Origin: an uncultured Alphaproteobacteria bacterium
Lineage (GTDB): Bacteria; Pseudomonadota; Alphaproteobacteria; Rhizobiales; Xanthobacteraceae
NCBI GenBank assembly: GCA_963724735.1
Contig: CAVRVX010000015.1
Span: forward strand, 10,081 to 74,080
DNA: 64,000 nucleotides
Direction of reading: 5' to 3'
Shown: piece by piece, positions 8,023-64,000 of the stretch
Layout of the letters: every line of letters begins with the position of its first letter
How positions within the stretch are numbered: the first letter of the stretch is position 1
Notes under the pieces: model-generated
Database searches by the model: none
What the model was told of the DNA's origin: nothing
Seen by the model: the letters and a program-made list of their open reading frames with translations, nothing else
Program-made: the position numbers and the translations under genes

Positions 8023-9290
8023 TGTTCAGCCCGGACACATGACTGACGGGTGTTCGGGGACATCGCTGACACGTCATCATTGCATGGAATCAGCCGCGAT
8101 GGAGGCGATCCATGCCATGGCAAGAGGTGTCGGTTATGGAGCAGCGTCGCGAGTTTGTGAGATTGGCGATGCAGGAAGGGATCAACCGACGGGAACTGTG
8201 CCGGCGGTTCGGGATCAGTCCTGATGTGGGCTACAAGTGGTTGCGGCGCTGGGTTGCGGGCGATCGGGAATTGGCTGACCGCTCGCGCCGCCCGCTTGTG
8301 AGCCCGGCCCGCAGCGAGCCCGCGATCGAGGCGGCGGTGCTGGCGGTGCGCGATGCGCATCCGGCCTGGGGCGCGCGCAAGATCGCTCGCTGTCTGGAGC
8401 GGGATGGACTTGCCCCGCCTGCGCGCTCGACGACGCATGCGATTTTACGCCGCCATGGCCGCGTCGAACCGCCGGCCGGGACGCCCGGCCAGCCTTATCG
8501 GCGGTTCGAGCGGGAGGCGCCCAACCTGCTGTGGCAGATGGACTTCAAGGGCCGCGTGGCTCTCATCGGCGACGGGGCCTGCCATCCGCTGACCATCGTG
8601 GACGATCACTCGCGCTATGCGCTGTGCCTTGCGGCCTGCGGCGATGAGCAAGGCCGCACCGTGCAAGGCCATCTGGAGCAGACGTTCCGCCGCTATGGGC
8701 TGCCCGAGAGCTTCTTCGTCGATAACGGCTCGCCTTGGGGCGATGCCTCGGGCGAGCACTTCACGCGGCTCGGAGTCTGGCTGCTCAAGCTCGGCATCAA
8801 GCTCATCCACAGCCGGCCGTATCATCCGCAGAGCCGCGGCAAGAACGAGCGCTTCCACCGCACCCTCAAGGCCGAGGTGTTCGCGATGCGCGCGTTCCGC
8901 AGGCTCATCGACGTCCAACGCGCCTTCGATCAATGGCGCGGGGTTTACAATCTCGAACGGCCGCACCAGGCGCTGAGCCAAGAGCCGCCGGCAAGCCGCT
9001 ATCGGCCGAGCGACCGCGCGATGCCGGATCGTCTTCCCCAGATCGAATATGATGAGCATGAGATCGTGCGCACGGTCCCTGCCACCAAGAACTACGTCAG
9101 CTTCAAGGGACGGCTGTGGCCGGTTCCACAAGCCTTCCGCGGCGAGCGCGTCGCCATCCGGCCTCTCTCCACGGACGGCCAATACGGCATCTTCTTCGCC
9201 GCCCACCAGATCGCAGCCATCGACTTGACCAATCGGAAAAGTGTCAGTCATCTCCCCGAACAGGTGTCAGCTATCTCCCCGGACTGAACA
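8023..9290 (+). mobile_element. IS481-family insertion sequence
   Basis: TGT...ACA ends. About 50-bp imperfect terminal inverted repeats (tgttcagcccggacacatgactgac... vs reverse complement tgttcagtccggggagatagctgac...) with repeated CTGAC sub-motifs. Confidence 0.92.
8112..9287 (+). CDS. IS481-family transposase
   Basis: MPWQEVSVMEQRREFV HTH start; WQMDFKG, VDDHSRY, DNG and GKNERFHRTLK form the rve DDE core. Confidence 0.93.
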   Translation: MPWQEVSVMEQRREFVRLAMQEGINRRELCRRFGISPDVGYKWLRRWVAGDRELADRSRRPLVSPARSEPAIEAAVLAVRDAHPAWGARKIARCLERDGLAPPARSTTHAILRRHGRVEPPAGTPGQPYRRFEREAPNLLWQMDFKGRVALIGDGACHPLTIVDDHSRYALCLAACGDEQGRTVQGHLEQTFRRYGLPESFFVDNGSPWGDASGEHFTRLGVWLLKLGIKLIHSRPYHPQSRGKNERFHRTLKAEVFAMRAFRRLIDVQRAFDQWRGVYNLERPHQALSQEPPASRYRPSDRAMPDRLPQIEYDEHEIVRTVPATKNYVSFKGRLWPVPQAFRGERVAIRPLSTDGQYGIFFAAHQIAAIDLTNRKSVSHLPEQVSAISPD

Positions 9291-44545: not shown

Positions 44546-44559
44546 TTGACATCGATCAA
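44546..44559. promoter_or_regulatory. FNR/FixK-like box upstream of the ABC transporter operon
   Basis: TTGAC-ATCG-ATCAA, one mismatch to TTGAT-N4-ATCAA. Confidence 0.55.
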
Positions 44560-44604: not shown

Positions 44605-44817
44605 GTCTCGTCTCTAGGTCGGCGGCCGGGGTGCAATCGATCGGGAGCGTCATGACGCCGCGTACCGGCATGGCATCACCCGCGAGCCGCCGGCATCGAA
44701 ACATCTTGGAGAGCCCTATTGATTTCACTCGCGGGCGGCGCGACTGAATCGTCCCGACAACGGCGCCGGACGCGAGCGCGACGTCGTCAACCGGAAAGCC
44801 GAAGCAGGGAGGAAGGC

Positions 44818-45990
44818 ATGGCAAGGCTGCTACTCGCCGCGGCGTTCGCGGCAGTTCTGATAGCGTCGGCGGCGGCTCAGGAGCCCATCAAGATCGGATT
44901 CATCTCGACCTTCTCGGGCCCCAGCGGCGGGCTGGGCCAGGAGCTTCTCGACGGCTTCAAGCTGGGCCTGAAGAAACTCGACAACAAGCTGGGCGGGCGG
45001 CCGGTCGAATTGATCCAGGGCGACGACCAGGCGAAGCCCGATGTCGGACGCCAGGTCGCCGACAAGATGATCGAGCGCGACCGCGTGCCGATTCTCACCG
45101 GCATCAACTTCTCGAACGTGATGCTGGCGGTGGCCAAGCCCGCACTCGACGCCGGCGTGTTCGTGATCAGCCTCAATGCCGGGCCCTCGCAATATGCCGG
45201 CGCGCAATGCCATCCGCACTACTTCACCGCCTCGTTCCAGAACGACACGGCGCCCGAGGCGATGGGAATTTACATGCAGAGCAAGGGCATCAAGCGCGTC
45301 TACCTGATGGCGCCGAATTATCCGGCGGGAAAAGACTTCCTCGCCGGCTTCAAACGCTACTTCAAGGGCGACATCGTCGACGAGGTCTATACCGGCTTCG
45401 GCCAGCTCGACTACGCCGCCGAGATCGCCCAGTTGCGCGACAAGAAGCCGGACGCGGTGTTCTTCTTCTATCCCGGCGGAATGGGCATCAACTTCGTTAA
45501 GCAATATTCGCAGGCCGGGTTGAAGAAAGACATCCCGCTCTACGGACCGTCGTTCTCGCTCGACCAGACCGTCCTGCCGGCGATGGGCGATGCGGCGGTC
45601 GGCGCCTTCGCCTCGACATTCTGGACCGAAGGCTTCGACAACCCCGCAAGCAAGACCTTCGCCGCCGATTTCGAGACCGAGTACGGCCGCATTCCCTCGC
45701 CGAACGCGGCGCAGGCCTACGACACGGCCTTCATCATCGATGCCGCGCTCAGGGCGATCGGCGGCAAGATCGAGGACAAGGCGGCGTTCCAGAAGGCGTT
45801 GGAGAACGTCAAATTCGACTCGGTGCGCGGCAACTTCAAATTCAACAAGAACCATTATCCCATCCAGGATTTCTACCTGGCCGAAATCGAAAAGGATCAA
45901 AAGGGCCGGCCGGTGATGGTGAAGCGCAGCCTGATCGTGCGCGACCACGCGGACGCCTACGCCAAAGACTGCAAGATGCCGGCGGGTTGA
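44818..45990 (+). CDS. ABC transporter substrate-binding protein, paralog of 34094..35278
   Basis: GGGAGGA RBS and signal peptide; KIGFISTFSGP, DDQAKPDVGRQ, GINFSNV and GQLDYAAEIAQLR shared with the paralog. Confidence 0.9.
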   Translation: MARLLLAAAFAAVLIASAAAQEPIKIGFISTFSGPSGGLGQELLDGFKLGLKKLDNKLGGRPVELIQGDDQAKPDVGRQVADKMIERDRVPILTGINFSNVMLAVAKPALDAGVFVISLNAGPSQYAGAQCHPHYFTASFQNDTAPEAMGIYMQSKGIKRVYLMAPNYPAGKDFLAGFKRYFKGDIVDEVYTGFGQLDYAAEIAQLRDKKPDAVFFFYPGGMGINFVKQYSQAGLKKDIPLYGPSFSLDQTVLPAMGDAAVGAFASTFWTEGFDNPASKTFAADFETEYGRIPSPNAAQAYDTAFIIDAALRAIGGKIEDKAAFQKALENVKFDSVRGNFKFNKNHYPIQDFYLAEIEKDQKGRPVMVKRSLIVRDHADAYAKDCKMPAG

Positions 45991-51247: not shown

Positions 51248-51904
51248 TCATCCGCCGGCAGGCAGCGGCGGAAAACGCGCGAGCGCGGCGATCACCTCGC
51301 TGTCGCTCGTCTGGCGGAAATCCGAATAGAAGAATCCAATTGCGCCGAAGTCGTCGTAGTCTTCCAGGCAGACCACCTCGTCCGCTTCGTCGCGCATTGC
51401 GACGAGCGTCTCGGTCGGCGCGACCGGCACGGCAAGGATGAGCTTCTTCGGCCCGCGCAGCCGCAAGGCGCGCAAGGCGGCGCGAGTCGTGGCGCCGGTC
51501 GCAATGCCGTCGTCGATCACGATGGCGACACGGCCGGCGACGTCGACGCGCGGGCGCGTCCCGAGATAGCGCTCGCGCCGCCGTTCGATCTCGACAAGCT
51601 CCTCGGCGCAGACGGCCTGGAGCTTCGCTTCGCTCACGCCGGTGAGCCGGATCACGTCTTCGTTGCGCACGATGATCGGCGCGGCGCCGTCGACCACGGC
51701 GCCCATCGCGAGTTCGGGTTGGAACGGAACGCCGAGCTTGCGCACGAGCACGAGGTCGAGCGGCGCGCCGAGCGCGGCGGCGACCTCGGCCGCGACCGGC
51801 ACCCCGCCGCGCGGCAGCGCCAGCACGACCGGCCGTTCGTTCTTGTAGGCGGCGAGCGCGGCCGCTAGCTGGCGTCCGGCGTCCGCACGATTCCTGAACG
51901 GCAT
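51248..51904 (-). CDS. Type I phosphoribosyltransferase (Rv2030c N-terminal-like)
   Basis: FRNRADAGRQLA, ALPRGGVPVA, VRKLGVP and VIDDGIATGAT PRPP loop. Confidence 0.88.
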   Translation of the reverse strand: MPFRNRADAGRQLAAALAAYKNERPVVLALPRGGVPVAAEVAAALGAPLDLVLVRKLGVPFQPELAMGAVVDGAAPIIVRNEDVIRLTGVSEAKLQAVCAEELVEIERRRERYLGTRPRVDVAGRVAIVIDDGIATGATTRAALRALRLRGPKKLILAVPVAPTETLVAMRDEADEVVCLEDYDDFGAIGFFYSDFRQTSDSEVIAALARFPPLPAGG

Positions 51905-51950
51905 GGCATGCCTCCCCCCGCTTCCGGCGCGCTGCGGTTCGCCCTCTTGT

Positions 51951-52580
51951 TCACACTGCGTCGACCAGCAGCACGTCGAGCTTCTTAAGCGACGACCGTG
52001 TGTCCGCCACCGAATTATCGACGTCGATGCCGCGGCACGCCCCCTCGATCACGACCACGTCGAAGCCGATGCGGCGCGCATCCTCGGCCGAGTAGCGCAC
52101 GCAGAAATCGAAGGCGAGCCCGGCGATGAAGACCTGCGAGAACCCGCGTTCACGCAAATAACCCGCAAGTCCGGTCGGCGTCTTGTGGTCATTCTCATAG
52201 AAAGCGGAATAGGAATCGATCTCGCGCCGGAACCCCTTGCGAAGGATCAGCTCGGCATGCGGGATCAAGAGCTCGGAATGAAAGGCCGCCCCGAACGTGG
52301 CCTGCACGCAATGGTCGGGCCACAAGATCTGCGGCCCGTATGCGACGGTGATCGCCTGATAGGGCGCATGGCCCGGATGGGCCGAAGCGAACGAATGATG
52401 GCCAGGCGGATGCCAATCCTGGGTCAGCACGACATGGCGGAACCGCGAGGCGTGGCGGTTGACCGCCGGGACCACTTCGTGACCGCGGGTCACCGGCAGC
52501 GCGCCGCCGGGGCAGAAATCGTTCTGGACATCAACGACGATGAGGACGTCATTGTCGGTAATCGATATCGGCCCGCTCAT
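51951..52580 (-). CDS. pncA: Nicotinamidase/pyrazinamidase
   Basis: VDVQNDF, QDWHP.GH, WPDHC, RKG...DSYSAF and GLAFDFCV. Confidence 0.92.
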   Translation of the reverse strand: MSGPISITDNDVLIVVDVQNDFCPGGALPVTRGHEVVPAVNRHASRFRHVVLTQDWHPPGHHSFASAHPGHAPYQAITVAYGPQILWPDHCVQATFGAAFHSELLIPHAELILRKGFRREIDSYSAFYENDHKTPTGLAGYLRERGFSQVFIAGLAFDFCVRYSAEDARRIGFDVVVIEGACRGIDVDNSVADTRSSLKKLDVLLVDAV

Positions 52581-52634
52581 GGTCGGCGCTCCGCTCACGC
52601 ACAGCCTATTCAATTCTCCGCGCCCGCGGGAGCC

Positions 52635-52648
52635 TTGAGCCAGATCAA
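52635..52648. promoter_or_regulatory. FixK/FNR box between divergent pncA and prs
   Basis: TTGAG-CCAG-ATCAA. Confidence 0.7.
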
Positions 52649-52744
52649 CGTTTCCGGCGGGCCGTTGAGCGAGCATCCTAACGGATTTCTGAGCCCCGAT
52701 CGATCCACGCGCGGCGGCCGCGTTGACGTATGGACGGTTCCGTC

Positions 52745-53723
52745 GTGACCTCCCTTGCTCTGTTCGCCCTCAATGCGACGGCCGACCTCGGCCGCGCGAT
52801 CGCGCAGGAACTATGGGTCACGCTCGCGCCCCACGAGGAACGCGAATTCGAGGACGGCGAGCACAAAGCGCGCCCGCTCGAACTCGGTCGAGGGCGCGGA
52901 CGCCTATGTGATCCAAAGCCTGCACAGCGGCCCCTCCCAGAGCGCCGCCGACAAGCTCGTCCGCCTGTTGTTTTTTATCGGCGCGCTCAAAGATGCCGGC
53001 GCGGCGCGGGTGACGGCGGTGACGCCCTATCTCTGCTATGCGCGCAAGGACCGGCGTACCAAGGCGCGCGATCCGGTGACCACCCGGTATCTTGCAACGC
53101 TGTTCGAAAGCGTCGGGACCGACACGATCGTCGCGCTCGACGTGCACAATCCCGCGGCGTTCGAGAACGCCTTCCGTGGCCGCACGATCGCGGCGACGGC
53201 GGCGCCACTGTTCGTTGATTACGCCAAGCGGCTGGCCGACCGGCCGCTCGCCGTCATCTCGCCCGATGCGGGCGGCGCCAAGCGGGCGGAGATTTTCCGC
53301 GAGGCGCTGGAGAAAGCGCGCAACGAACCGATCGGCAAGGGTTTCGCGGAAAAGCACCGCAGCTCCGGCGTCGTCTCCGGCGACCTGTTCGTCGGCGACG
53401 TGGCGGGCGCGACGGCGCTCGTCATCGACGATCTCATCAGCACCGGCACAACGCTCGTGCGCGCCGCAAAGGCGGCGCGTCAGGCCGGCGCGCGCCGGGT
53501 GATCGCGATGGTGACGCACGGCCTGTTCATGCCCGGCGCCGAAAAGGCGATCGCCGATCCGGCGCTCGACCAGTTGGCGGTCACCGACGCGGTTCCTGCC
53601 TTCCGGCTTGTCTCCGACGCCGCGCGCGAGAAAGTCGAAGTGCTGCCGGTTGCGCCGTTGCTCGCCGAGATCATCCGCCGATTGCACGCAAGGCGAAGCC
53701 TCGCCGACCTGCAGATCCTCTGA
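52745..53723 (+). pseudogene. prs: Ribose-phosphate pyrophosphokinase with a +1 frameshift near 52881
   Basis: EFEDGEHKARPL continues in a shifted frame as SVEGADAYV; YLCYARKDRR, DVHN, SPDAGG and DDLISTGTT. Confidence 0.8.
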
Positions 53724-54795
53724 GCATCGCATCGAGCCGCCATGCGTCGGCCGCGACAAGATGCAAGTAATCGCGCGCCTGCGCCGGCCATTTCTCCGGC
53801 GTTCGCACGTCTTTCTCGAACAGGTGCGCAACGGCAAGTCGCGCGCGCAGCGTCGCCCGGTGGCACCGATAGAAGGCGAACAGTGCGGCCGGAGGCGCAT
53901 CGCGGACGGCCCGCACCAGCCGGCGGCGCAGATACCGCGCGACCCATGCCGCGCCCAGCCGCTCGCATTCCAGCGTCAGGAAGGCGATTTCGTCGAACGG
54001 GTCGTTGGCGCGCAGCTTGTCGTTGAATTCGAGGCAATCGATGATACGCGGCTCGCAGCCGAGCCAGATGTGCTCGGGCCGCAGGTCGCCATGCGCGTCG
54101 ACGATATGGCCGGAGGCGGCGCGCGCGGCGAGCAGCGAGCCGAAGCGTGCGACAAACCGCTCCTGGACGCCATCGATGAAGCTGGCGAGCCCCGCCGGCA
54201 CTTGTGCGCGCGGATCGGACAGACCGCGCCGATTGTCGGCAATGCTCTTCCGCCAGTCGGCGAGATGAGCCGCCCCGGTCATGCGGATGGGCGCCGCGTG
54301 GCGATAGAAGTGCGCAAGCAACGTCACCAGCCGATCGAGGGCGCGCTCGTCGACCCGATGCGCGGCGATCGCGTGGTCCAGCATGCAGCGCTCATCCAAG
54401 CGGCGCATCACGACCAGCCAGTCGACCACAACGCCGCTGCCGGCAAGCGCCAGCCCATGCCGCGCAGCAGTCAGGGGCAGCACGTCGACATAGACATCGC
54501 CGGCGAGGCGCCGGTTCAGCCGGAGCTCCGCGCGGCAGGCGGTCGCGCGGCGCGCCAGCGTCGAAAAGTCGAGATAGGGAAAGCGCACCGGCTTCTTCAG
54601 CTTGTAGACGCGCGGCCCGGCGAGAAAGACCCATGACATGTGCGTTTCGCGCACGACCACGGCGTCGACGCGATGCGGATATGCATCCGGACGGCTGAGG
54701 AAGGCGACCTTTTCCGCCAGGCTCGCGGCCAACGACGGGCAGACGAAATCCCCCCCAGCCTTGGCGAGGGCTCCAGCCGCGCGCCCCAATGTCAT
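53671..54795 (-). CDS. Aminoglycoside-phosphotransferase-like kinase (Rv2004c N-terminal domain) without the AAA domain
   Basis: ETHMSWVFL, YKLKKPV.FPYLDFST, ELRLNRRLA, HGDLRPEH and IDCLEFN. Confidence 0.8.
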   Translation of the reverse strand: MTLGRAAGALAKAGGDFVCPSLAASLAEKVAFLSRPDAYPHRVDAVVVRETHMSWVFLAGPRVYKLKKPVRFPYLDFSTLARRATACRAELRLNRRLAGDVYVDVLPLTAARHGLALAGSGVVVDWLVVMRRLDERCMLDHAIAAHRVDERALDRLVTLLAHFYRHAAPIRMTGAAHLADWRKSIADNRRGLSDPRAQVPAGLASFIDGVQERFVARFGSLLAARAASGHIVDAHGDLRPEHIWLGCEPRIIDCLEFNDKLRANDPFDEIAFLTLECERLGAAWVARYLRRRLVRAVRDAPPAALFAFYRCHRATLRARLAVAHLFEKDVRTPEKWPAQARDYLHLVAADAWRLDAMLRGSAGRRGFALRAIGG

Positions 54796-55016
54796 TCTCG
54801 CTTGAACGAAAGCAGCGCGCCGTCGAGCTGATCGAACGCCGCCTCGTTCAGGCGGTCCATGAATTCCCCCACGCTCGTCGCCCGATCGAGTTCGCGCCGC
54901 TCGAGGTATTTCCAGATGTCGCCGCAGGCCGCCGCGAAAGACTCGGCATCTCCGATTTCGCAAACCTGCCGACAGATCGTTTCGCCTTTCTTGGTCAGGG
55001 TGAGGGTGACCTTCAT
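54792..55016 (-). CDS. Small hypothetical protein (74 aa)
   Basis: ATG at 55016 after GAGG; its stop overlaps the kinase start (ATGA). Confidence 0.65.
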   Translation of the reverse strand: MKVTLTLTKKGETICRQVCEIGDAESFAAACGDIWKYLERRELDRATSVGEFMDRLNEAAFDQLDGALLSFKRE

Positions 55017-55114
55017 GCCCAAGCCTCGCGGGTCGCGGGGGAACAGACGAACCGCGCGCGACAAGCCCCGCTCGCCTCCCCCGGGCGCGAGCGGAGCCGA
55101 ATAGCCTAGCGGGC

Positions 55115-55657
55115 CTATTTCGCGTCGATGGCGATCTTCTTTTCCGGCTTCTGCGCCTCGGTCCCTTTGGGGAGCCTGATCGTCAGCACGCCCTTCTCGA
55201 AGCTTGCTTGAATCTTGTCCTCGTCGATCCCTTCCGGCAATTCGAACGAGCGCTGGAACGAGCCGAACCGCCGCTCGGAAATATAATAGTCCTTTTCCTT
55301 CTCCTCTTTCTCTTCCTTCTTCTCACCCTTGATCGTGAGCATGCCGTTGGCAAGCTTCACGTCGATATTGCTGGAGTCCATGCCCGGCAATTCCGCGGTG
55401 ATCTCGAATTCCTTGTCGCGCTCGCAGACGTCCACCGCCGGCGCCTTTCCCCAACCTTCCGGGAGCGGCCACGACGGCCGGAAGTCCAGCAACGACCGAC
55501 CGAATGGGCGGCCCAGGCCGAACCCGCGGCCGAAATCCTCGAACATCCGATCGACCTGGCGGCGGAGCGATTCGAACGGCTCCCATTCCACCGGCGCTCT
55601 GCGTTCCGGCGCCTGATCCTCTTTTTTCACTGCGATGTTGCCCTTTGCTTCAGCCAT
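55115..55657 (-). CDS. Hsp20/alpha-crystallin family protein
   Basis: PAVDV, AELPGM, ERRFGSFQRSF and GVLTIRLPK; GGAGAA RBS. Confidence 0.93.
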   Translation of the reverse strand: MAEAKGNIAVKKEDQAPERRAPVEWEPFESLRRQVDRMFEDFGRGFGLGRPFGRSLLDFRPSWPLPEGWGKAPAVDVCERDKEFEITAELPGMDSSNIDVKLANGMLTIKGEKKEEKEEKEKDYYISERRFGSFQRSFELPEGIDEDKIQASFEKGVLTIRLPKGTEAQKPEKKIAIDAK

Positions 55658-55731
55658 AGCACTTCTCCTATTCGCCTCCCCCGCCGCTTGTTTGATATTT
55701 TCTTACGTAAGACCGGTGTGACCGCCGACCT

Positions 55732-55745
55732 TTGAGAACGATCAA
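55732..55745 (-). promoter_or_regulatory. FixK/FNR box upstream of hsp20
   Basis: Minus strand TTGAT-cgtt-CTCAA, 75 bp upstream of the ATG. Confidence 0.7.
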
Positions 55746-55807
55746 AAACACGCCGCGCTGAAAATGGTTCCTCCAAGAAAGAGCGCTGCAAGCGCTCGCA
55801 AGCCGCG

Positions 55808-57238
55808 TCATCCCTTAATGCAAATCACCGGCCTGACCCGCGCCACGCGGCGGGCAAGGCCGGCCTGTTCAGCCGCCTCGCAAACTGCCCCCACGTCCTT
55901 GTAGGCCCCCGGCGCCTCTTCGGCGACCCCGCGGCTCGATGGACTGCGGATCAGGATGCCCTCCCGCGCGAGATCATCGACGACCTTGCGTCCGCTCCAT
56001 CGCTTCAGCGCCGCGTGCCGCGACATGGCCCGCCCGGCTCCATGGCAGGCGGAGGAAAACGCCTTCTCCTCGCCGGTCGCGGTTCCCACCAGCACATAGG
56101 AGGCGGTGCCCATGCTGCCGCCGATCAGGACCGGCTGGCCGATCGAACGAAGCGGCACGGGCAGACTGGGGTGGCCGGGACCGAAGGCGCGGGTGGCCCC
56201 TTTCCGATGGACGAACACATCCCGCCTGCGACCGTCGATCTCGTGGACTTCCTCCTTGCAGGTGTTGTGCGAGACGTCGAACAGGAGATCGAGCGGCGCC
56301 TGCGGAAAGAAGCGCCGCACCGCCTGGCGAGCGAAGTGGCCAAGAATCTCGCGGTTGGCCAGCGCACAATTGATGGCCGCGCGCATGGCCCCGAGATAAC
56401 GCTCGCCGAGTTCCGACCGGATCGGCGCGCAGGCGAGATCGCGGTCGGGCAGTTCGATGCCGAGTCCGGCCGCCGCGACGGCCATCTCCTTGAGGTATTC
56501 GCTGCCGATCTGATGGCCCAGGCCGCGCGACCCGCAGTGGATCGTCACCAGCACGTCATCTGTCGCAAGCCCGAAGGCATCGGCTGCCGCGGCGTCGAAG
56601 ATCTCAGCCACCACCTGCACTTCGAGATAGTGATTGCCGGAGCCGAGCGTGCCCATTTCGCGGTGCTGCCGGTGCTTGGCCTTGCTCGAGACGCACTCGG
56701 GACGGGCGCCGGCCGTCGTGCCGCCCTCCTCGATGCGGGCGAGGTCGGCCGCCTCGCCCAATCCGCGCTCGATAGCCCAGGCGGCGCCGCCCGCCAGCAT
56801 GTGATCCATTTCGATTGGATCGAGGCTGATCGCGCCCTCGCTGCCGACGCCAGCCGGAATGTCGCGAAAGAGCTGGTCTGCCAAAGCCTTCTGCACGGGC
56901 GCAAGCTCGCGCGCGGTGAGCCCCGTGAGCATCGTCCGCACGCCGCAGGATATGTCGAAGCCAACCCCGCCCGCTGAAACCACGCCCCCGGCGGCGGGGT
57001 CGAAGGCGGCGACGCCGCCGATGGGGAAGCCATAGCCCCAATGGGCGTCCGGCATGGCATAGGAGGCCTTCACGATGCCGGGCAGCCGGGCGACATTGGC
57101 GGCCTGTTCGTAGACCTTGTCGTCCATATCGCGGATGAGCGCCTCATCCGCAAAAATAATGGCCGGCACGTACATGCCGGCCACCGGCTCGATTCGCCAT
57201 GCGGTTTCGTCAATCCGTGTGAGCCGCGCCGGATCCAT
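55808..57238 (-). CDS. rtcB: RtcB family RNA ligase (long form)
   Basis: PDAHWGYGFPIGG, GFDISCG, GTLGSGNHY, HCGSRG, HN, HRKGATRA, GSMG and HGAGR. Confidence 0.93.
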   Translation of the reverse strand: MDPARLTRIDETAWRIEPVAGMYVPAIIFADEALIRDMDDKVYEQAANVARLPGIVKASYAMPDAHWGYGFPIGGVAAFDPAAGGVVSAGGVGFDISCGVRTMLTGLTARELAPVQKALADQLFRDIPAGVGSEGAISLDPIEMDHMLAGGAAWAIERGLGEAADLARIEEGGTTAGARPECVSSKAKHRQHREMGTLGSGNHYLEVQVVAEIFDAAAADAFGLATDDVLVTIHCGSRGLGHQIGSEYLKEMAVAAAGLGIELPDRDLACAPIRSELGERYLGAMRAAINCALANREILGHFARQAVRRFFPQAPLDLLFDVSHNTCKEEVHEIDGRRRDVFVHRKGATRAFGPGHPSLPVPLRSIGQPVLIGGSMGTASYVLVGTATGEEKAFSSACHGAGRAMSRHAALKRWSGRKVVDDLAREGILIRSPSSRGVAEEAPGAYKDVGAVCEAAEQAGLARRVARVRPVICIKG

Positions 57239-57244
57239 GGCCCG

Positions 57245-57712
57245 TTAAACGTCGACGATGCATCCGGCCGACCACATCCCCGTCGAGTCGCGCGCCACCC
57301 GGAGCTCAGTCAGCGTCGCCGCCTTCGGCTCGCAGGCTGGAGCGTGGCGCGGCTGGACGCTTTCGCCCCAAGCCGTCCCGTAAAGTCGCCGCCCCCTGAT
57401 GGAGACGGAGAAACGGCCGAACAGCATGCGGCGCGCGGCCATCTCGTAAATGATCGCATCGAGCCATTCGACGAGCAGCAACTCGTCGTCAGGCGCCTCG
57501 CAGACCACCGTGACCGCGATTTTCGGGGTGACAGGCACGTCCGTCACGACCGCCGCCAGCGCGAGCGCCGCCTGCTCGAAAGCCTCTTCGAGGCTCAGTC
57601 CATAGCCTCGCACGCCGATATCGGCGCCATGCGCGAAGTGCTCCCACCCCACCCCGCTGACGCCGTTCTTGCGCACAAGGTCTTCAGTTCGAACGCTTGC
57701 CGGGCTTTCCAT
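57245..57712 (-). CDS. Archease (RtcB activator)
   Basis: WEHFAHGADIG, EAFEQAA, LLVEWLDAIIY, KAATL and C-terminal IVDV; immediately upstream of rtcB. Confidence 0.85.
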   Translation of the reverse strand: MESPASVRTEDLVRKNGVSGVGWEHFAHGADIGVRGYGLSLEEAFEQAALALAAVVTDVPVTPKIAVTVVCEAPDDELLLVEWLDAIIYEMAARRMLFGRFSVSIRGRRLYGTAWGESVQPRHAPACEPKAATLTELRVARDSTGMWSAGCIVDV

Positions 57713-57830
57713 TGTCGTTCTCCATCACCACAATGGCCCTACGCCGAGAGGCCTCTTCGCCCGGCGCGGCCCCGTCATTCGCGCAGTTCGCCGCAAGCCC
57801 ATTCGCCTGAGTTTGCGGAACTCGTTCGCC

Positions 57831-58298
57831 TCAGGAGGAGGCCGCCCGATCGATGCCCTGCGACAATCCTGAAACGACTGGTTTCGCGGTGTTGGCCATC
57901 ATCTTCTGAGTGAACGCCCAGAAATCCTTCCATTGCGCAGCGAATGCCCCGAACTGTCTGCGCGCAAACCCCGTCGACAGACCAACCATGTCGGACGGCG
58001 ATCTCGCCGCCGCCAATTCGCCCGTAAAGTCGAGAATGGCCGACACATTCGTCTGACAGGTCTCGAGGATTTTGCTGTGCAGCCCCGCCGTATCCTTGAC
58101 CGCTACGAAATAGCTCTTCTCCATGGCATCCATGATGGCGTCGACATTGGTGCTCATCCTGCCAAAGCCATCCCGGATCTGCGCGAAACCAGACGCCGCC
58201 GCCAGTTTCACCCCATCGGGGATATCGATGTGCGGGGATCGGCCCGCTGAAAAAGCTGCCTCAGAATCGATTCGCTGTCCTTCCACGAACACCTCCAT
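57831..58298 (-). CDS. Phasin family protein
   Basis: Helical Ala-rich protein with IP..V...A, N....DF...LA.A.SPS and RRQF..F..Q, as in rhizobial phasins. Confidence 0.65.
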   Translation of the reverse strand: MEVFVEGQRIDSEAAFSAGRSPHIDIPDGVKLAAASGFAQIRDGFGRMSTNVDAIMDAMEKSYFVAVKDTAGLHSKILETCQTNVSAILDFTGELAAARSPSDMVGLSTGFARRQFGAFAAQWKDFWAFTQKMMANTAKPVVSGLSQGIDRAASS

Positions 58299-58329
58299 GC
58301 GCCTGCGCGCCTGTGGGGTGGCGCTACTC

Positions 58330-59020
58330 TCAAGCGTGCAGCCGTTTCAGAGCTTTGCGATTGACCAATACTATACGCCGGCAAGTTGGCACTGAGATGG
58401 CAGCTGACGTCTCGAGCTGCGTCAACGTGCGCGAAATCGTTTCAATGGTGAGGCCGAGATAGTCGGCGATGTCCTGCCGCGACATAGGCAGGTCGATGAC
58501 ATCGGCCTCGGCCATCCGCTCGGCCATTTCAAGGAGGAAACAGGCCACCCGTTCTTGCGCGCTGCGAATCAAGAGGAGCATGTGCTCCTGCACACGGCGC
58601 AATTCCTGGGCGGTCAGCGTCCACAACAGGTGCGCAACCTTGTGGTCGGTATCGGCGAGCGTAATCAGCGCGTTGCGCTTGATCACCAGCATCGTCGACT
58701 TGCCGATGGCTTCCGCCGAGCAGTTGTGAACGTCGCCGACGCCAAGGCCGAAGACCGCGCCGGGCAAATAGAAGGCGCTGATCTGACGCCGGCCGTCGTT
58801 CAGAACCTTGTAAGTGCGGGCGGCTCCCGATACGACCTGATAGACGTAATCGGCCGGCTCCCCCTCACCGAAGATTTCCTCGTTGCGGGCGTAGGAAACC
58901 GGCACGCCCATCGATTTCGAGCGACGGCACGCTCGTCCGGTTTGCGTCCGAAGCGGTCCATCGGCGCAAGGGATTGACCGGACGGCTCAGGCTGATGGTT
59001 TGTGAATTTTGCATCAGCAT
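58330..59020 (-). CDS. fixK: Crp/Fnr regulator FixK, with an apparent +1 frameshift at 58915-58917
   Basis: EIFGEGEPADY, DGRRQI.AFYLPG and LPMSRQDIADYLGLTIETISR, with no Fe-S Cys cluster. The ATG at 59020 is 109 nt upstream of the in-frame ATG at 58911; deleting one A joins them. Confidence 0.85.
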
Positions 59021-59128
59021 GGCTTAGGCTCCGCCACAAGGACCAATCATAAAGACAAGTTATGGACGCCGAGCCGCTGCGAAAACTCGTGTCGTGTCCC
59101 TAAGTAAACCCCCGGAGGAGGAAACGTC

Positions 59129-60679
59129 TTGGCGGACAAGTCAAAGGCGCCTTCGATATCAGAAATCGAGCTCCCTTCGCGGACGAGCGTTGCCCGGCTG
59201 CCAAGCCTCGCAACGACCCCGCAGCGGGCTGTCTGGTATGTCGGCGCTGCCGTGCTCGCGGGCGCCGCATTTGTCGTCCATGTGCTCGTGTCCTCGCTCA
59301 CCATCCCGGAAGCCGACCTGCTCTTCATGGTTCCCGCCATCCTGGTGGCGGGCGCGCTGGGCGGGCTCGGGCCGGGACTTCTGGCGACGACCCTCTGCGT
59401 CGGCCTGCACCTGCTGTCGCCCGGCGGCTCCTTGGCCTTATCCAGCGCCAATCTCCTCACGGTAGGGGGGTTCACCGTCATCGGGGTCGGGATGGCCCTG
59501 TTCGGCGAACGGCTGCGCCTCGCCCGTCTGCAGGCCGCGACGCGAACGAACGACCTGCTGGCGCGGGAGGCCTATCTACAATCGCTGCTCGCCTCGGTTC
59601 CCGACGCCGTCATCATTATCGATGCGCATGGCATCATCCGTTCCTTCAGCAGCGCTGCGGAGCGGCTGTTCGGCTATTCCGCAAGCGAGGCAATCGGCCA
59701 GAACGTGCGGATGCTGATGCCGGTGCCCGACCGAACGGCGCACGACGGCTATATCCGCCGTTATCTGCAGACCGGGGAGCCGCGCATTATCGGGATCGGA
59801 CGCGTCGTGGTGGGCGAACGCAAGGACGGCTCGACCTTTCCGATCGCGCTGTCGGTCGCCGAAATGAAATCCGACGGCCGCCGACTGTTCACCGGCTATA
59901 TCCGCGACCTGACCGAACGGCAGGAGACCCAGGCACGTCTCGAGCAACTGCAATCCGAAGTCGTCCATATTTCGCGTCTGACCGCCATGGGCGAGATGGC
60001 CTCGGCGCTTGCCCACGAACTCAATCAGCCGCTTTCGGCGATCGCCAATTACCTGACCGGATCGCGGCGACTGCTGGCCGATCCCTCCGAGGAGAATCTC
60101 CAACTCGTGCGCGCGGCGATTGACACAGCGGTGGAGCAGTCGCTGCGCGCGGGCCAGATCATCGGCCGATTGCGCGACTTTGTGGCCCATCGCGAGCCCG
60201 AAAAACGGATCGAGAGCTTGAGGAAGCTGATCGAGGAGGCGAGCGCGCTCGCGCTCGTCGGCGCAAAAGTGCTCGGAATTCGCGTGCGGCTGCGCTTCGA
60301 CCCGGCGATCGACCGGGTCATCGTCGACAAGGTGCAAATCCAACAAGTCTTGCTCAATCTGATGCGCAATGCGATCGAGGCGATGGAAAACGCCGACAGG
60401 CGCGAGCTGACCGTCAGCACGGCGACCGGTCCGGACGGCGCCGCCCTGGTCGAGGTCGCCGACACCGGCTGCGGGATTTCGCGAGAAATAGCCAACCAGC
60501 TGTTTGTGCCCTTCGCCACAACCAAGCCACACGGAATGGGCGTCGGGCTTTCGATATCGAGGGCGATCATCGAGAGCCATGAAGGGCGCATCTGGGCGGA
60601 AGCCAACCCTGGCGGGGGCACGGCGTTTCGGTTTACATTGCAAGCGCTGGTGGACGAGGAGCTTGGCGATGTCGGCTGA
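59129..60679 (+). CDS. fixL: Membrane-anchored heme-PAS oxygen sensor kinase FixL
   Basis: TM domain; PAS with HDGYIRRY and [14 protein letters not shown]; AHELNQP H-box; GMGVGL. Confidence 0.9.
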
Positions 60680-61313
60680 CCCTGTCGTTCATGTCATTGA
60701 CGACGATGAAGCGGTCCGGCGGTCGCTCGACTTCCTGCTGCGGAGCGCGCGGTTCAAGACACGCACCTACGAGAACGCGCTCGCCTTCCTTAACGCGCTG
60801 CCCGACATCCCTTCCGGCTGCATCGTGACCGACGTAAAAATGCCGGAGATGAGCGGGGTCGAGCTGTTGCGTCACTTGCGCCAGAAGAAGCTGCGCCTGC
60901 CGGTCATCCTCATCACCGGGCATGCCGACGTCCCGATGGCCGTTGAGGCGATGAAGAACGGCGCTGTCGATTTCCTCGAAAAGCCCTTCGACGACGAGGT
61001 GCTGCTCAACGCCGTGCGCTCGGCGCTCGCCGCACTCGAGAACGCCTCGCAGCGCGACCTCGAGCGCGTCGAGTTGCAGCAACGCTTCGCCAGCCTCTCC
61101 CGACGCGAACGCGAAGTGCTGGAAGGGCTGGTCGCAGGGAAACCGAACAAGACCATTGCGTTCGATCTCGGCATCAGCCCGCGCACGGTCGAGATTTACC
61201 GCGCCAATGTCATGACCAAGATGCGCGCGGTCAGTCTTTCCGAGTTGGTGCGAATGACCCTGATCGCAGGCTTCCCATCCGATCAGGAGTTGGCGCGACG
61301 CTCGCTCGGCTAG
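60669..61313 (+). CDS. fixJ: Response regulator FixJ
   Basis: [32 protein letters not shown] and Lux[21 protein letters not shown]. Confidence 0.93.
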
Positions 61314-61330
61314 GGGTGCGGCGCATCTTT

Positions 61331-61344
61331 TTGAGCAGCGTCAA
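61331..61344. promoter_or_regulatory. FixK/FNR-like box downstream of fixJ with no intact target gene
   Basis: TTGAG-CAGC-GTCAA. Confidence 0.45.
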
Positions 61345-61400: not shown

Positions 61401-61631
61401 GTGCGACGCGAGACGACGATCGGATGCTCGTCCGCGCGCAGTCGGCGGGTCGCGCTTGTCCAGGCCCGACCCACGGCCATATCCGCGACTCTGATTAGAG
61501 CTGAAGCGCGCGGTGTATTGACGCCGATCCGGCTCCATCCCTCCGACAACGGCAGAGTGTTTTATCGGCGCGACCAGGTCGGCGGCGTAGCGGGAGGCGG
61601 CGATGTCGCCCCAGGCGGGAGGGCGACATGA
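61401..61631 (+). pseudogene. Degenerate MerR/excisionase-like HTH
   Basis: SATLIRAEARGVLTPIRL...GRVFYRRDQV resembles the Xis-type wing. The N terminus is disrupted and the stop overlaps the next ATG. Confidence 0.4.
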
Positions 61632-62649
61632 AAATTTGGGTCAAGCTCAATAAGAATTTTGCCAACTTTCCCCTCGCGCGCGATCCTCGGCGGGGACAGG
61701 CCGGCGAGTGGCGGAGAGGACACAAGCGCGAAGACGGCTGCTTGAAACAGTGGTGGTGGAGGACTTTGCCGGGCGAGCGGAAAATCGTATTGCGCTTGCC
61801 TCACTCCTTCGAGGGGAAGCGGCGCTGTCCAACCGCGTTCGACATGAACGTGCTGTTCCTCGTCCTAAGCAAGGCGCAAGCAACCAATTCGAACAAGGTC
61901 GAGTTCGCCTCGCATGCCGCAATGCTGGCCGCGCTCGGGGTTGGCCGACGCCAGAGCCGCAACCGCCAGCGACTCACCGAGTCGCTGCAGCTCTGGAACG
62001 CTTGTCCCTCATATTTCGCGAGTGCTGGTACCGGCCCAAGCAGCACCCCACGCTGTACTGCGGGCAAGTCACACCCGGCCGTCCTGCCGAGAAGGGCCAA
62101 TCGATCGGCTTGCCGCCGCCGTTCAAAGAATGCGACATTTCGCCTTCGGGCAAGATCTCCATCACGCTGAGCAAAGCCTGGTTCCCTCACCTGGGCGGCG
62201 ACGCCGGCTTTATCTGCCGCCTCAACCTGCCGCTGCCGGCCAGCGCAGCCGCGCAGAATGTCGCGCTGTGCGAAAGCGCATGGTCGAATGACGGCGTGGG
62301 GAAAATCCGAGGCAGTGAGCCGAAGCTGAAGAACAACGCGGCGAACTACGCGCGCAAAATCGGCACACGCCGATCGCGGCTCCCTGCCGCGATTGCTGCG
62401 GCCTGCGCATATTTCAAAGAACAGGGTGAAAAGGCCGTGCCGTTTTGGATCGGCCGCAGCCGCAGCGAATTTGTGATTTTGCGAACGAAGGCCAAAAAAT
62501 CCGAACTCGCCGGGCAATCGGAGCTGGACGAGCCGAAGCCCAGGCCCAGGCCGCCATTGAAGCCGAGGCCCGTCTCGAACCGGCCGGTGTTCGAGGAGGA
62601 CTGCTCGGCCGAGGCGGAGGGGGGCGAAATCGATCTTGACTACCCATGA
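61628..62649 (+). pseudogene. Putative replication initiator (Rep/TrfA-like winged helix) with a -1 frameshift at about 61996
   Basis: PTAFDMNVLFLVL...FASHAAMLAALG...NRQRL..SL.LW joins ERLSLIFRECWY in the next frame, giving about 340 aa. An iteron-like array follows directly. Confidence 0.5.
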
Positions 62650-62668
62650 TTTTGACACGTCAGGCGCG

Positions 62669-62824
62669 CCTCTCGGCTCCGCAAACGGTTGGGTACCTCT
62701 CGGCTCCGGCAGTGAGGTACCTTTCGGCAAATAGTGAGGTACCTCTTGGCTCGGCGGTGAGGTACCTTTCGGCTCGACGGTGAGGTACCTTTCGGCTCCG
62801 CATGAGGTACCTTTCGGCTCCGCA
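62669..62824. repeat. Iteron-like array: six 22-23 bp direct repeats plus one partial copy
   Basis: Units start at 62690, 62713, 62735, 62758, 62781 and 62803; consensus TGAGGTACCTTTCGGCTC(n)4-5. An AT-richer stretch follows. Confidence 0.85.
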
Positions 62825-63070
62825 ATCCACTCCAAGTTTGCTATAACATATTGTGGTTGCTCAAGAATTCGCGGCGACCGGATTTGCCTACGATAGATAT
62901 ACGAGAGATTGTACGAGAGAAAGGCTTACGAACGAAAAAACGAAAGAATGGAAAAATCGAGCGCCGCCGGCTTCGCTCCCTTGGAGCCCAAGGAAAGGAT
63001 CACTCTAACGAAGAACCACTCCAACACAAGAACCCACCCCAACAAAAAAGGGGACATGCCCCCTTGAAAT

Positions 63071-63150
63071 GAGAGAGAGAGAGAGAGAGAGCGAGGAGTT
63101 CGCAGCGGCTTCACTCCCTCGCTCCGCTCCGCTCCGCTTCGCTCCGCTCG
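63071..63150. repeat. Simple repeats (GA)10 and (GCTCC)6-like
   Basis: gagagagagagagagagaga at 63071-63090; gctcc gctcc gctcc gcttc gctcc gctcg at 63121-63150. Confidence 0.9.
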
Positions 63151-63192
63151 TTTGTGTCTCGCTTTTTTCCTTCATCTCCGAGAGAGGAATTA

Positions 63193-63318
63193 CCACCCCA
63201 ATGAAAAGGAGAAGTGGCTTTCCACCCCAATGAAAAGAGAAGTGAGCTTACATTTCGCGCTTGGTTCGCCGGCCAGGCATAGTAGTTTTGTTCCGCCCGG
63301 CCGGGCATAGTAGTTTTG
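63193..63318. repeat. Two pairs of direct repeats
   Basis: CCACCCCAATGAAAAG at 63193 and 63222; CCGGCC(A/G)GGCATAGTAGTTTTG at 63269 and 63297. Confidence 0.85.
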
Positions 63319-63401
63319 GCCAAACCTAAAGAGAATTTGCCTGCTTGCCCGTCTTAAGCTAACGTCGCAGCATTGCCCAAAAAGAACAGAGTGAAACCTA
63401 A

Positions 63402-64000
63402 GGGGACTTCGAATAATTGGCTGCGGTCGTGTGCTGTGCGAATCTCGTTGGCGCGAGTTGATTCCGCGGAGCGAGACGATGGGACAATTGGGGTTTTTTG
63501 ACGCTGAGCGGCGGTTGGCGGCGTTGTTGGAGAAGGGCGATCCGCTGGAGACGATCGGAGGGCTGGTTCCGTGGGAGAGTTTCCGCGCCGACATCGAGGC
63601 GGTCGTGCTGACGCCGGAGGAGGCGAAGAAGAGCAAGGCCGGTCGCAAGCCGCTCGACGCGCTTGTTGTGTTCCGCATGCTAGTCCTGCAGGCGTTGTAC
63701 AATCTGTCGGATGAGCAGATCGAGTATCAGGTGCGCGACCGGCTGTCGTTCACGCGGTTTCTCGGGCTTGGCTTTGAGGATGGCATCCCGGACGGCACGA
63801 CCCTATGGCTATTCCGCGAGAAACTGGCGCAGGCCGGGCTGATCGACAAGCTGTTTGACCAGTTTGACCGACAGCTCAACGCCAAGGGCTACATTGCACG
63901 CGGCGGGCAGATGGTAGACGCGAGCATTGTGCCGGCGCCGAAGCCGCGCAACACGCGTGAGGAGAACGAGGTGCTCAAGCGCGGCGAGACGCCTCCGGCG
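63402..64000 (+). mobile_element. IS5-family element, left end (runs off the window)
   Basis: CTAA target-like sequence at 63398-63401 followed by GGGGACTTCGAATAA, then the transposase. Confidence 0.8.
63479..64000 (+). CDS. IS5-family transposase (3' end outside the window)
   Basis: MGQLGFFD...GRKP...LQALYNLSDEQIEYQVRDRLSF.RFLGL...PDGTT...VDASIV. Confidence 0.92.
   Translation, partial: MGQLGFFDAERRLAALLEKGDPLETIGGLVPWESFRADIEAVVLTPEEAKKSKAGRKPLDALVVFRMLVLQALYNLSDEQIEYQVRDRLSFTRFLGLGFEDGIPDGTTLWLFREKLAQAGLIDKLFDQFDRQLNAKGYIARGGQMVDASIVPAPKPRNTREENEVLKRGETPPA

Follow-up and report, generated by a model that had tools for sequence, protein, structure and literature searches.

A probable orthologue of the FixL-FixJ-FixK low-oxygen cascade with predicted FixK-box-promoted cargo genes in a Rhodoplanes-like alphaproteobacterium

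We analysed a gene cluster at positions 51248-61344 of a 64,000-nt stretch of DNA (the window, whose positions serve as coordinates throughout) from contig CAVRVX010000015.1 of an uncultured alphaproteobacterium, in which genes for the oxygen-sensing proteins FixL and FixJ and the regulator FixK stand beside genes for protein protection, RNA repair and nucleotide salvage. The host genome (G000; 4.67 Mb) is metagenome-assembled, 92% complete and 4.5% contaminated; C3, C5, C13, C14, C19, C27, C31, C41 and C43 are other contigs of it. Gene identities were obtained from hidden Markov model scans (Pfam, NCBIfam), sequence matches to the PDB and, for the kinase, an AlphaFold2 (AF2) model compared using Foldseek. 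The scans upheld the gene order given in a preliminary description of this DNA, which had read the cluster as a self-contained hypoxia-survival island.

At the right of the cluster, fixL (59129-60679, plus strand) encodes a membrane N-terminus followed by a heme-PAS domain and a transmitter with HisKA and HATPase_c domains, and its end overlaps the start of fixJ (60669-61313, plus strand), whose ATG at 60669 has GAGGAG upstream. FixJ combines a receiver with a LuxR/GerE helix-turn-helix domain (Pfam Response_reg and GerE) and scores 310.8 bits against the equivalog model NF006900, above its cut-off of 255. The stretch of FixL that matches the heme domain of Bradyrhizobium japonicum FixL (PDB 1dp6) carries H205 within HDGYIRRY and an IIGIGR motif; we take this His and the Arg of IIGIGR to be the proximal His and the distal-pocket Arg of FixL. 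Family orthologues align only from residue 115 on, suggesting that the N-terminal module, a DUF4118-like multi-pass membrane domain (59129-59560), was swapped in this lineage. Divergent from fixL, fixK (58330-59020, minus strand) consists of a 193-aa body (58330-58911) and a 36-codon extension (58913-59020) that is out of frame. FixK shows the Pfam domains cNMP_binding and HTH_Crp_2 and has no N-terminal FNR cysteine cluster, its cysteines being found at 64, 124 and 177 only.

Downstream of fixK, and likewise on the minus strand, follow a gene for a phasin, a polyhydroxyalkanoate (PHA) granule protein (57831-58298; Pfam Phasin_2, 45 bits vs a cut-off of 24.9; TIGR01985, 83 bits, under the cut-off of 99.7), a gene for archease, the activator of RtcB (57245-57712; Pfam Archease, 116 bits), and, directly after it, rtcB for the RNA 3'-phosphate ligase (55808-57238; Pfam RtcB, 553.6 bits over 426/426 profile positions). 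A terminator-like hairpin on the minus strand (55781-55797), with a 7-pair stem and a T-rich tail, stands directly after the rtcB stop. Beyond it lie, again on the minus strand, the small heat-shock gene hsp20 (55115-55657; Pfam HSP20, 97 bits), a conserved open reading frame (ORF) of 74 aa (54792-55016) and a gene for a kinase of the aminoglycoside phosphotransferase (APH)/choline-kinase fold (53671-54795). The stop of the small ORF overlaps the kinase start in ATGA, which suggests translational coupling. Tail to tail with the kinase gene stands a prs paralogue (52730-53723, plus strand; TIGR01251, 215 bits vs a cut-off of 113), the genome's second gene for ribose-phosphate diphosphokinase, split here by a +1 base. 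The left end is taken by an operon on the minus strand, in which pncA for nicotinamidase/pyrazinamidase (51951-52580; NCBIfam NF008623, 188.3 bits vs a cut-off of 174) is followed by the second and last gene, that for a TT1426-like type I phosphoribosyltransferase (PRTase; 51248-51904; Pfam Pribosyltran, 63.7 bits).

Three copies of the palindrome TTGA-N6-TCAA, which we call a FixK box and take as perfect unless a mismatch is stated, were confirmed exactly at 52635, 55732 and 61331. Box 1 (TTGAGCCAGATCAA, 52635-52648) lies between the divergent pncA-PRTase and prs genes, box 2 (TTGAGAACGATCAA, 55732-55745) in the predicted promoter of hsp20-orf74-kinase, and box 3 (TTGAGCAGCGTCAA, 61331-61344) behind fixJ, with no gene downstream of it in the window. 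From the centre of box 1 it is 61 bp to the start codon of pncA and 88 bp to that of prs, and 81 bp separate the centre of box 2 from the ATG of hsp20 downstream of it, so that these boxes stand 61-88 bp upstream of start codons. The first of these distances takes 52580, and not 52676, as the real, in-frame pncA start. In promoters of FixK regulons, the box is centred ~41.5 bp upstream of the transcription start. In the two closest related MAGs that carry the locus (metagenome-assembled genomes; L011 and L012), box 1 is letter-identical. A perfect box precedes hsp20 also in L012 and in the same-genus genome L092; in L011 a stretch of Ns (~9072-9171) covers the promoter of this gene. Behind fixJ, a perfect box is found in L011, L012, L092 and L093. 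Overall, 5 boxes occur in the window where 0.47 are expected, a number reached in 0/100 shuffles, and 69 in the genome where base composition predicts ~17. Among the genes that boxes precede genome-wide are hemN, hemA, ccoN, ccoG and genes for CBS-BON, DUF892, PEBP, Kup and NDH-2-like proteins, to all appearances a typical FixK/FNR regulon. A fourth perfect box of the window (TTGACATCGATCAA, 44546-44559) lies outside the cluster, 166 bp upstream of an ORF at 44719-45990.

The spacer between fixK and fixL has a different anatomy. A promoter element (59080-59096) and a palindrome (CCCTAAGTAAACCCCCGGAGG, 59097-59118) leave a footprint in 15 orthologous intergenic regions, all of which share the palindrome and an A/T-rich AAAATTCAGATAAT-like element. 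Together they resemble the FixJ site TAAGTAATTTCCCTTA of Sinorhizobium meliloti (PMC4999443), and the FixJ-box-like palindrome is a candidate site for FixJ upstream of fixK. No intergenic box was found before fixK, phasin or archease even at one mismatch, and the 118-bp gap between phasin and archease holds neither box nor hairpin; fixK-phasin-archease-rtcB is therefore most simply read as one FixJ-driven transcript, with archease-rtcB apparently appended to a fixK-phasin operon. A scan for sigma-70 promoters returned no sites, as expected for promoters that depend on an activator.

To place the cascade, we compared it with other systems of this kind in the same genome and in related ones. Window FixL scores 178 bits against the B. 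japonicum heme domain and 345 bits against the kinase part of the same protein, and the best PDB match of window FixK is FixK2 (4i2o, 206 bits); the corresponding values for a second set of proteins encoded on C13 are 116, 198 and 103 bits. That set (C13:247000-262000; L010) comprises FixL-like, FixJ-like, single-domain receiver and FixK-like genes followed by ccoNOQP, ccoG, a copper ATPase gene and hemA, a stretch in which three genes have FixK boxes. Its FixL-like protein reads HDGYIGNY where the window protein has HDGYIRRY, an Arg being replaced by Asn, and its FixK-like regulator shares the E-T-x-S-R recognition helix of window FixK. The survey of the family covered 121 genomes, and the canonical fixK neighbourhood was inspected in twenty. 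Window FixK finds matches at E <= 1e-30 in 90 of the 121, and the C13 type occurs in 10 only, the same genus included. The fixK-fixLJ block is orthologous across the family at 55-76% identity; in 6 of the 20 contexts (L097, L099, L105-L107, L109) it stands, as fixK-fixLJ-[box]-fixT, beside ccoN-ccoG, and in L092 it adjoins [box]-hsp20-pncA-PRTase. The preliminary description had called for a check for other fixLJ copies, which, besides the full set on C13, turned up a third FixL-like/FixJ-like pair with a single-domain receiver (C41:19277-21259); two in-frame TGA codons in the kinase frame indicate that this kinase is probably a pseudogene. As previously noted, the region itself is free of cbb3 and nif genes: ccoN was located at C13:255454-257106 and nifH on C31. 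By orthology, the FixL-FixJ-FixK proteins of the window thus appear to form the canonical cascade with lineage-specific neighbours and not an extra sensor.

These results bear directly on the proposal that the cluster is a self-contained, possibly mobile dormancy island, similar to the DosR regulon of Mycobacterium tuberculosis and equipped with a dedicated extra oxygen sensor, or, in a weaker form, that survival genes are governed here and respiration by the C13 set. Sensor, regulator and cargo do lie within 10 kb, and the genome has two full FixL-FixJ-receiver-FixK sets, of which the other adjoins ccoNOQP and hemA. Moreover, in three genomes that carry the second set (G043, G095, G025) no ccoN lies within ~10 kb of the canonical fixK (L091-L093), and foreign DNA borders the cluster. 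However, the set found here is the canonical orthologue, which relatives keep next to ccoNOQP, and its boxes belong to a population spread over the whole genome. Insulation of the two circuits is unlikely, given that recognition helix and box type are common to both FixKs. Mobility of the cluster was rejected, since collinearity with L011 and L012 extends over the whole of it and over its left flank, and foreign DNA starts only at 61425. Finally, among the kinase loci described below, the kinase-prs-PRTase core has fixLJ-fixK next to it in 2 of 80 only, those of L011 and L012. We consider an island of this kind unlikely.

The cargo was followed through relatives of the kinase, with one genome per species. 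Among 589 relatives, our counts cover the best 80 loci (49-82% identity), in 79 of which the kinase was found again, and 79 is the base of some counts. These loci come from Rhodoplanes, Pseudolabrys, Bradyrhizobium, Hyphomicrobiaceae, Caulobacter, Stella, Gluconacetobacter, Reyranella and a few non-alphaproteobacterial MAGs. The prs gene stands tail to tail with the kinase gene in 77/79 loci; a PRTase homologue is present in 58 of the 80, a homologue of the 74-aa ORF in 25 (several directly after a box), pncA in 24, hsp20 in 11 and rtcB in 9. FixK boxes are 14-fold denser in the kinase loci (0.209 per kb) than across the genome of the window (0.0148 per kb), and in 49/79 loci a box lies <=400 bp upstream of the kinase gene, mostly 84-105 bp away. 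In our cluster the 3' ends of kinase and prs overlap by 53 bp (53671-53723), and many loci have boxes on both sides of the pair; the conserved tail-to-tail arrangement could allow antisense interplay.

The archease-rtcB pair shows a similar association. Within the family, a box lies 90-130 bp upstream of archease in 4 of 8 orthologous loci and further upstream, behind another gene, in 3 more. RtcB itself is patchy, occurring in 10/121 family genomes but not in two of the same genus, and in L012 ~930 bp inside the gene are deleted (L012:9131-9133). The gene is single-copy in our genome, where control by RtcR was ruled out because no RtcR is encoded. Other cargo genes have relatives elsewhere in the genome: an hsp20 paralogue, 85% identical, lies at C19:28971-29492 with a FixK box ~1.5 kb upstream (C19:27477), and a prs gene on C27, presumed to be the housekeeping copy, is 35% identical to the window paralogue. 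Judged from these conserved arrangements, the cargo appears to be a FixK/FNR-box gene set shared across Alphaproteobacteria, with a kinase-prs core, usually the PRTase, and often pncA, the small ORF, hsp20 and archease-rtcB. Very probably, FixK controls its genes as a low-oxygen set. The earlier idea of a hypoxia-survival module can thus be kept as far as low-oxygen control is concerned, and has to be given up in so far as it made the module self-contained or private.

It could be argued that the boxes are chance occurrences or generic CRP/FNR-family sites used by another regulator, and that the cargo answers a signal other than oxygen. TTGA-N6-TCAA is indeed common to FNR, FixK, DNR and related regulators (PMC2908626), and the genome encodes at least 4 CRP/FNR-type homologues of FixK. 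The 14-fold enrichment and the tight spacing upstream of the kinase across the 80 loci speak against this view, as do the positions of boxes beside fixLJ-fixK and upstream of fixT. In addition, hsp20 (blr4637) and a 'putative kinase' (blr6071) of B. japonicum depend on FixK2 and have been predicted to belong to the core FixK regulon (PMC2908626). A reading in terms of chance or generic sites is accordingly the least probable of those considered here, and we regard it as highly improbable.

Two members of the cargo have no assigned substrate. The kinase gave no Pfam hit, not even to APH PF01636 at E <= 5, and no NCBIfam or PDB sequence match, although its family has >7,000 homologues, which carry the JGI name 'aminoglycoside phosphotransferase family enzyme'. 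Its AF2 model (predicted local distance difference test score 88) matches APH, choline, maltose, N-acetylhexosamine (GlcNAc) and methylthioribose kinases with a Foldseek probability of 1.0 and template modelling scores of 0.4-0.55. The loop HGDLRPEH is invariant or nearly so, with a His where APH has Asn. The model presents the protein as a bilobal APH/choline-kinase fold whose catalytic loop is of the H-x-D type. A paralogue on C3 has the architecture APH+AAA_33, which we take to be that of Rv2004c of M. tuberculosis, and its APH domain shares 34% identity with the kinase. The PRTase matches Thermus TT1426 (PDB 1wd5), its sole relative in the PDB, with an E-value of 4.5e-40, and TT1426 is likewise without an assigned function. 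A role as a substitute for PncB was ruled out by a NAPRTase-family gene on C43.

The right border of the cluster tells of a loss. In L011, L012, L092, L093, L097, L099, L101, L105-L107 and L110, the box after fixJ precedes fixT, a single-domain receiver of 135 aa. In the window, homology to L012 ends at 61410 and to L011 at 61424, which leaves 53 bp to the start of fixT; relative to L011 the window lacks ~514 bp, the whole of fixT among them, and no fixT orthologue was found anywhere in the assembly. In their place stands lineage-specific inserted DNA (61425-64000) with unassigned ORFs, a repeat array and an IS5-family transposase gene from 63431. The ancestral right flank (deaminase, methyltransferase and SURF1-like genes) is now at C5:18573-21502, adjoining an ORF that we call integrase-like on the strength of its N-terminal sequence only, and close to a copy of the insertion sequence (IS). 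This IS5-family (DUF772) element has at least 4 copies that are >=99% identical (window 63391-64000, C5:15002-15612, C14:34252-34851, C13:122934-123532). A mobile insertion or rearrangement beside the cluster thus seems to have removed the feedback gene fixT, leaving box 3 as what we read as an orphaned fixT promoter. Since fixT was replaced by foreign DNA, negative feedback is predicted to be missing.

The preliminary description had seen a replicon remnant at this border. Foreign DNA, a transposase gene and an iteron-like array of direct repeats (23 bp x 5.8, GGTACCTTTCGGCTCGGCAGTGA, 62692-62824, downstream of the unassigned ORFs) are indeed present. The ORFs at 61628-62170 and 61708-62649, however, gave no Pfam hit at E <= 5 and no Rep family, and blastn and tblastn found nothing similar to the border among 72,556 plasmids. 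We rejected a replicon remnant on these grounds; only the repeat array and the IS speak for a mobile element, and both lie outside the cluster.

The reading frames of fixK and prs raise a further question. Relative to both L011 and L012, the window has exactly two private +1 insertions in coding sequence. That in prs falls at ~52877-52883: the first ~49 codons are read from the ATG at 52730, those after them in frame with 52755. Either prs is a true pseudogene or the assembly is wrong at this point. In fixK the extra base, at 58912, lies between the body and the N-terminal extension (MLMQNSQTISLS, MLMQN...), which is conserved with L011, L091 and L092 and in frame in relatives. Of the two reference records, L012 is itself indel-prone, with many single-base indels. 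The adjacent 4.8 kb of ABC-transporter genes in the window show no frameshifting indel vs L011, so the assembly is not generally indel-prone.

These lesions, together with the absence of fixT from the assembly, could be taken as signs of a decaying cascade whose boxes are served by the intact FixK-like regulator of C13 or not at all. In keeping with such a takeover, the matched frames of the FixL-like, FixJ-like and FixK-like genes on C13 are free of internal stops, and fixJ2 is separated from the FixK-like gene by an ORF for a single-domain receiver. On the other hand, errors in the consensus of a MAG of this completeness and contamination could account for the single-base insertions, and an ATG lies exactly at the fixK frameshift site. 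Apart from prs, the genes of the cluster, namely fixL, fixJ, the body of fixK and the rest of the cargo, remain intact, at 80-90% identity to their L011 counterparts. Decay therefore appears doubtful to us, if somewhat less so than an island.

We consider it likely that the region is a Rhodoplanes-like alphaproteobacterium's orthologue of the FixL-FixJ-FixK(-FixT) low-oxygen cascade, together with box-promoted cargo beside it. The locus is then a member of the FixLJ-FixK systems with an unusual neighbourhood and regulon content, and not a self-contained or mobile dormancy island. By homology and anatomy, low oxygen would cause the heme-PAS kinase FixL to phosphorylate FixJ. Phosphorylated FixJ would bind the palindrome at 59097-59118 and have fixK-phasin-archease-rtcB transcribed up to the hairpin at 55781-55797. 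FixK, which has no Fe-S cysteine cluster and for this reason is presumably controlled through its expression, would act as a class-II-type activator at the TTGA-N6-TCAA boxes. Box 2 would drive hsp20, orf74 and the APH-like kinase gene, box 1 would drive pncA-PRTase to its left and the prs paralogue to its right, and box 3 would ancestrally have driven fixT, the feedback inhibitor of FixL. Under limited respiration, the cargo would likely provide protein protection, RNA end-repair, salvage of phosphoribosyl pyrophosphate (PRPP) and pyridines, and handling of PHA granules.

Several observations weigh against this cascade model. FixL reaches 569 bits where the equivalog NF041777 has a cut-off of 850, and its N-terminal third is a membrane domain and not the rhizobial N-terminus. 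FixK reaches 245 bits where NF050806 has a cut-off of 300, although that model is specific to Caulobacter and the frameshift cuts off the N-terminal extension in our sequence. The fixK gene may be crippled, as its internal ATG has no obvious ribosome-binding site, and the C13 FixK-like regulator, with the same E-T-x-S-R helix, could be the one that binds the boxes. In this cluster archease-rtcB lacks a separate box, so that the absence of box and terminator from the 118-bp gap has to carry the case for co-transcription with fixK. A terminator scan gave six sites in the region where shuffles give 8.2; in view of this lack of enrichment, it is by its position that the hairpin at 55781-55797 is supported. 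Oxygen dependence and the promoters are, moreover, what we infer from the letters of the DNA.

More tentatively, and as a possibility that we would rate above decay but well below the cascade model, the cargo may belong to a conserved alphaproteobacterial FixK/FNR-box toolkit for hypoxic maintenance that shares at least 5 families with the DosR regulon. Its members may be the APH-fold kinase tail to tail with a dedicated Prs paralogue, the TT1426-type PRTase, often PncA, the 74-aa ORF, Hsp20 and archease-RtcB. Unrelated oxygen regulators of distant phyla would then have recruited the same survival functions, with kinase, Prs and PRTase making or recycling a ribosylated metabolite, and RtcB repairing RNA in hypoxic arrest. 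If this holds, the metabolite would be one that is needed when respiration stalls.

The cascade is textbook knowledge, and work on Bradyrhizobium had already reported hsp20 and a 'putative kinase' to be under FixK. Beyond this, the conserved boxes point to low-oxygen control of archease-RtcB and the kinase-Prs-PRTase trio in many soil Alphaproteobacteria. These gene families are also found in the DosR regulon of M. tuberculosis, where their roles are uncharacterised, and since the families are shared, tractable relatives such as Bradyrhizobium, Caulobacter and Rhodoplanes could be used to learn their roles in hypoxic survival. With two FixL-FixJ-FixK sets of the same box specificity, the lineage is also a natural case for cross-talk or partition, and this genome offers a naturally fixT-less and possibly fixK-impaired cascade.

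Among known systems, the cluster is most readily compared with FixLJ-FixK2 of Bradyrhizobium, with which it shares a heme-PAS FixL, FixJ, a cysteine-cluster-free FixK with an E-T-x-S-R helix and TTGA-N6-TCAA boxes. In B. diazoefficiens, a Prs paralogue and a phasin appear in a table comparing proteins and transcripts under microoxia (PMC6515984). Unlike in Bradyrhizobium, fixK here is followed by phasin-archease-rtcB and is not near fixNOQP, FixL has a membrane N-terminus in place of a first PAS domain, and the cbb3 genes sit with the second FixLJK-like set. Joint mention of FixK and RtcB was not found in the literature searched. In S. meliloti and Caulobacter, FixT inhibits FixL and this feedback is FixK-dependent; the relatives of our genome conform to such fixT systems in that the box after fixJ precedes the receiver gene, whereas the window keeps the box and has had fixT replaced. 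In Escherichia coli, the rtcBA operon is controlled by RtcR and sigma-54, and RtcB is a stress-induced repair enzyme. Our RtcB would resemble it in the latter respect, but the genome has no RtcR, rtcA is not adjacent, the partner is archease, and control is predicted to come from oxygen via FixJ and FixK.

As to the DosR regulon, we assume that its gene Rv2630 encodes an archease. The regulon contains Rv2630, Rv2631 (RtcB), Rv0571c (PRTase), Rv0573c (nicotinamide recycling) and Rv2004c, as well as the Hsp20/hspX block Rv2028c-Rv2032 (PMC5309233). The Burkholderia cenocepacia lxa locus (BCAM0275-0323) has explicitly been likened to it (PMC6127331), and in the passages of that paper used here lxa is, as our cluster is predicted to be, a group of hypoxia-induced stress genes; it includes an alpha-crystallin gene and is thought to be under an FNR/FixK-type regulator. 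According to the same passages, lxa differs in having ~50 genes and being rich in universal stress proteins; they mention no phosphoribosyl enzymes or phasin, and the Burkholderia FixLJ homologues, BCAL2210/2211, lie outside the locus, as their different locus tags indicate. Our cluster, for its part, has no universal stress protein, nitroreductase or tgs genes, unlike the DosR regulon. The DosR regulator is of the NarL type and acts under DosS/DosT, whereas the regulator here is the unrelated CRP/FNR-type FixK under FixLJ. The resemblance to the DosR regulon that had first been noticed is thus real at the level of the gene families that the literature names, where the comparison finds a wider overlap than had been noted, and this likeness appears to lie in the cargo families only, the regulators being FixL, FixJ and FixK and not DosR.

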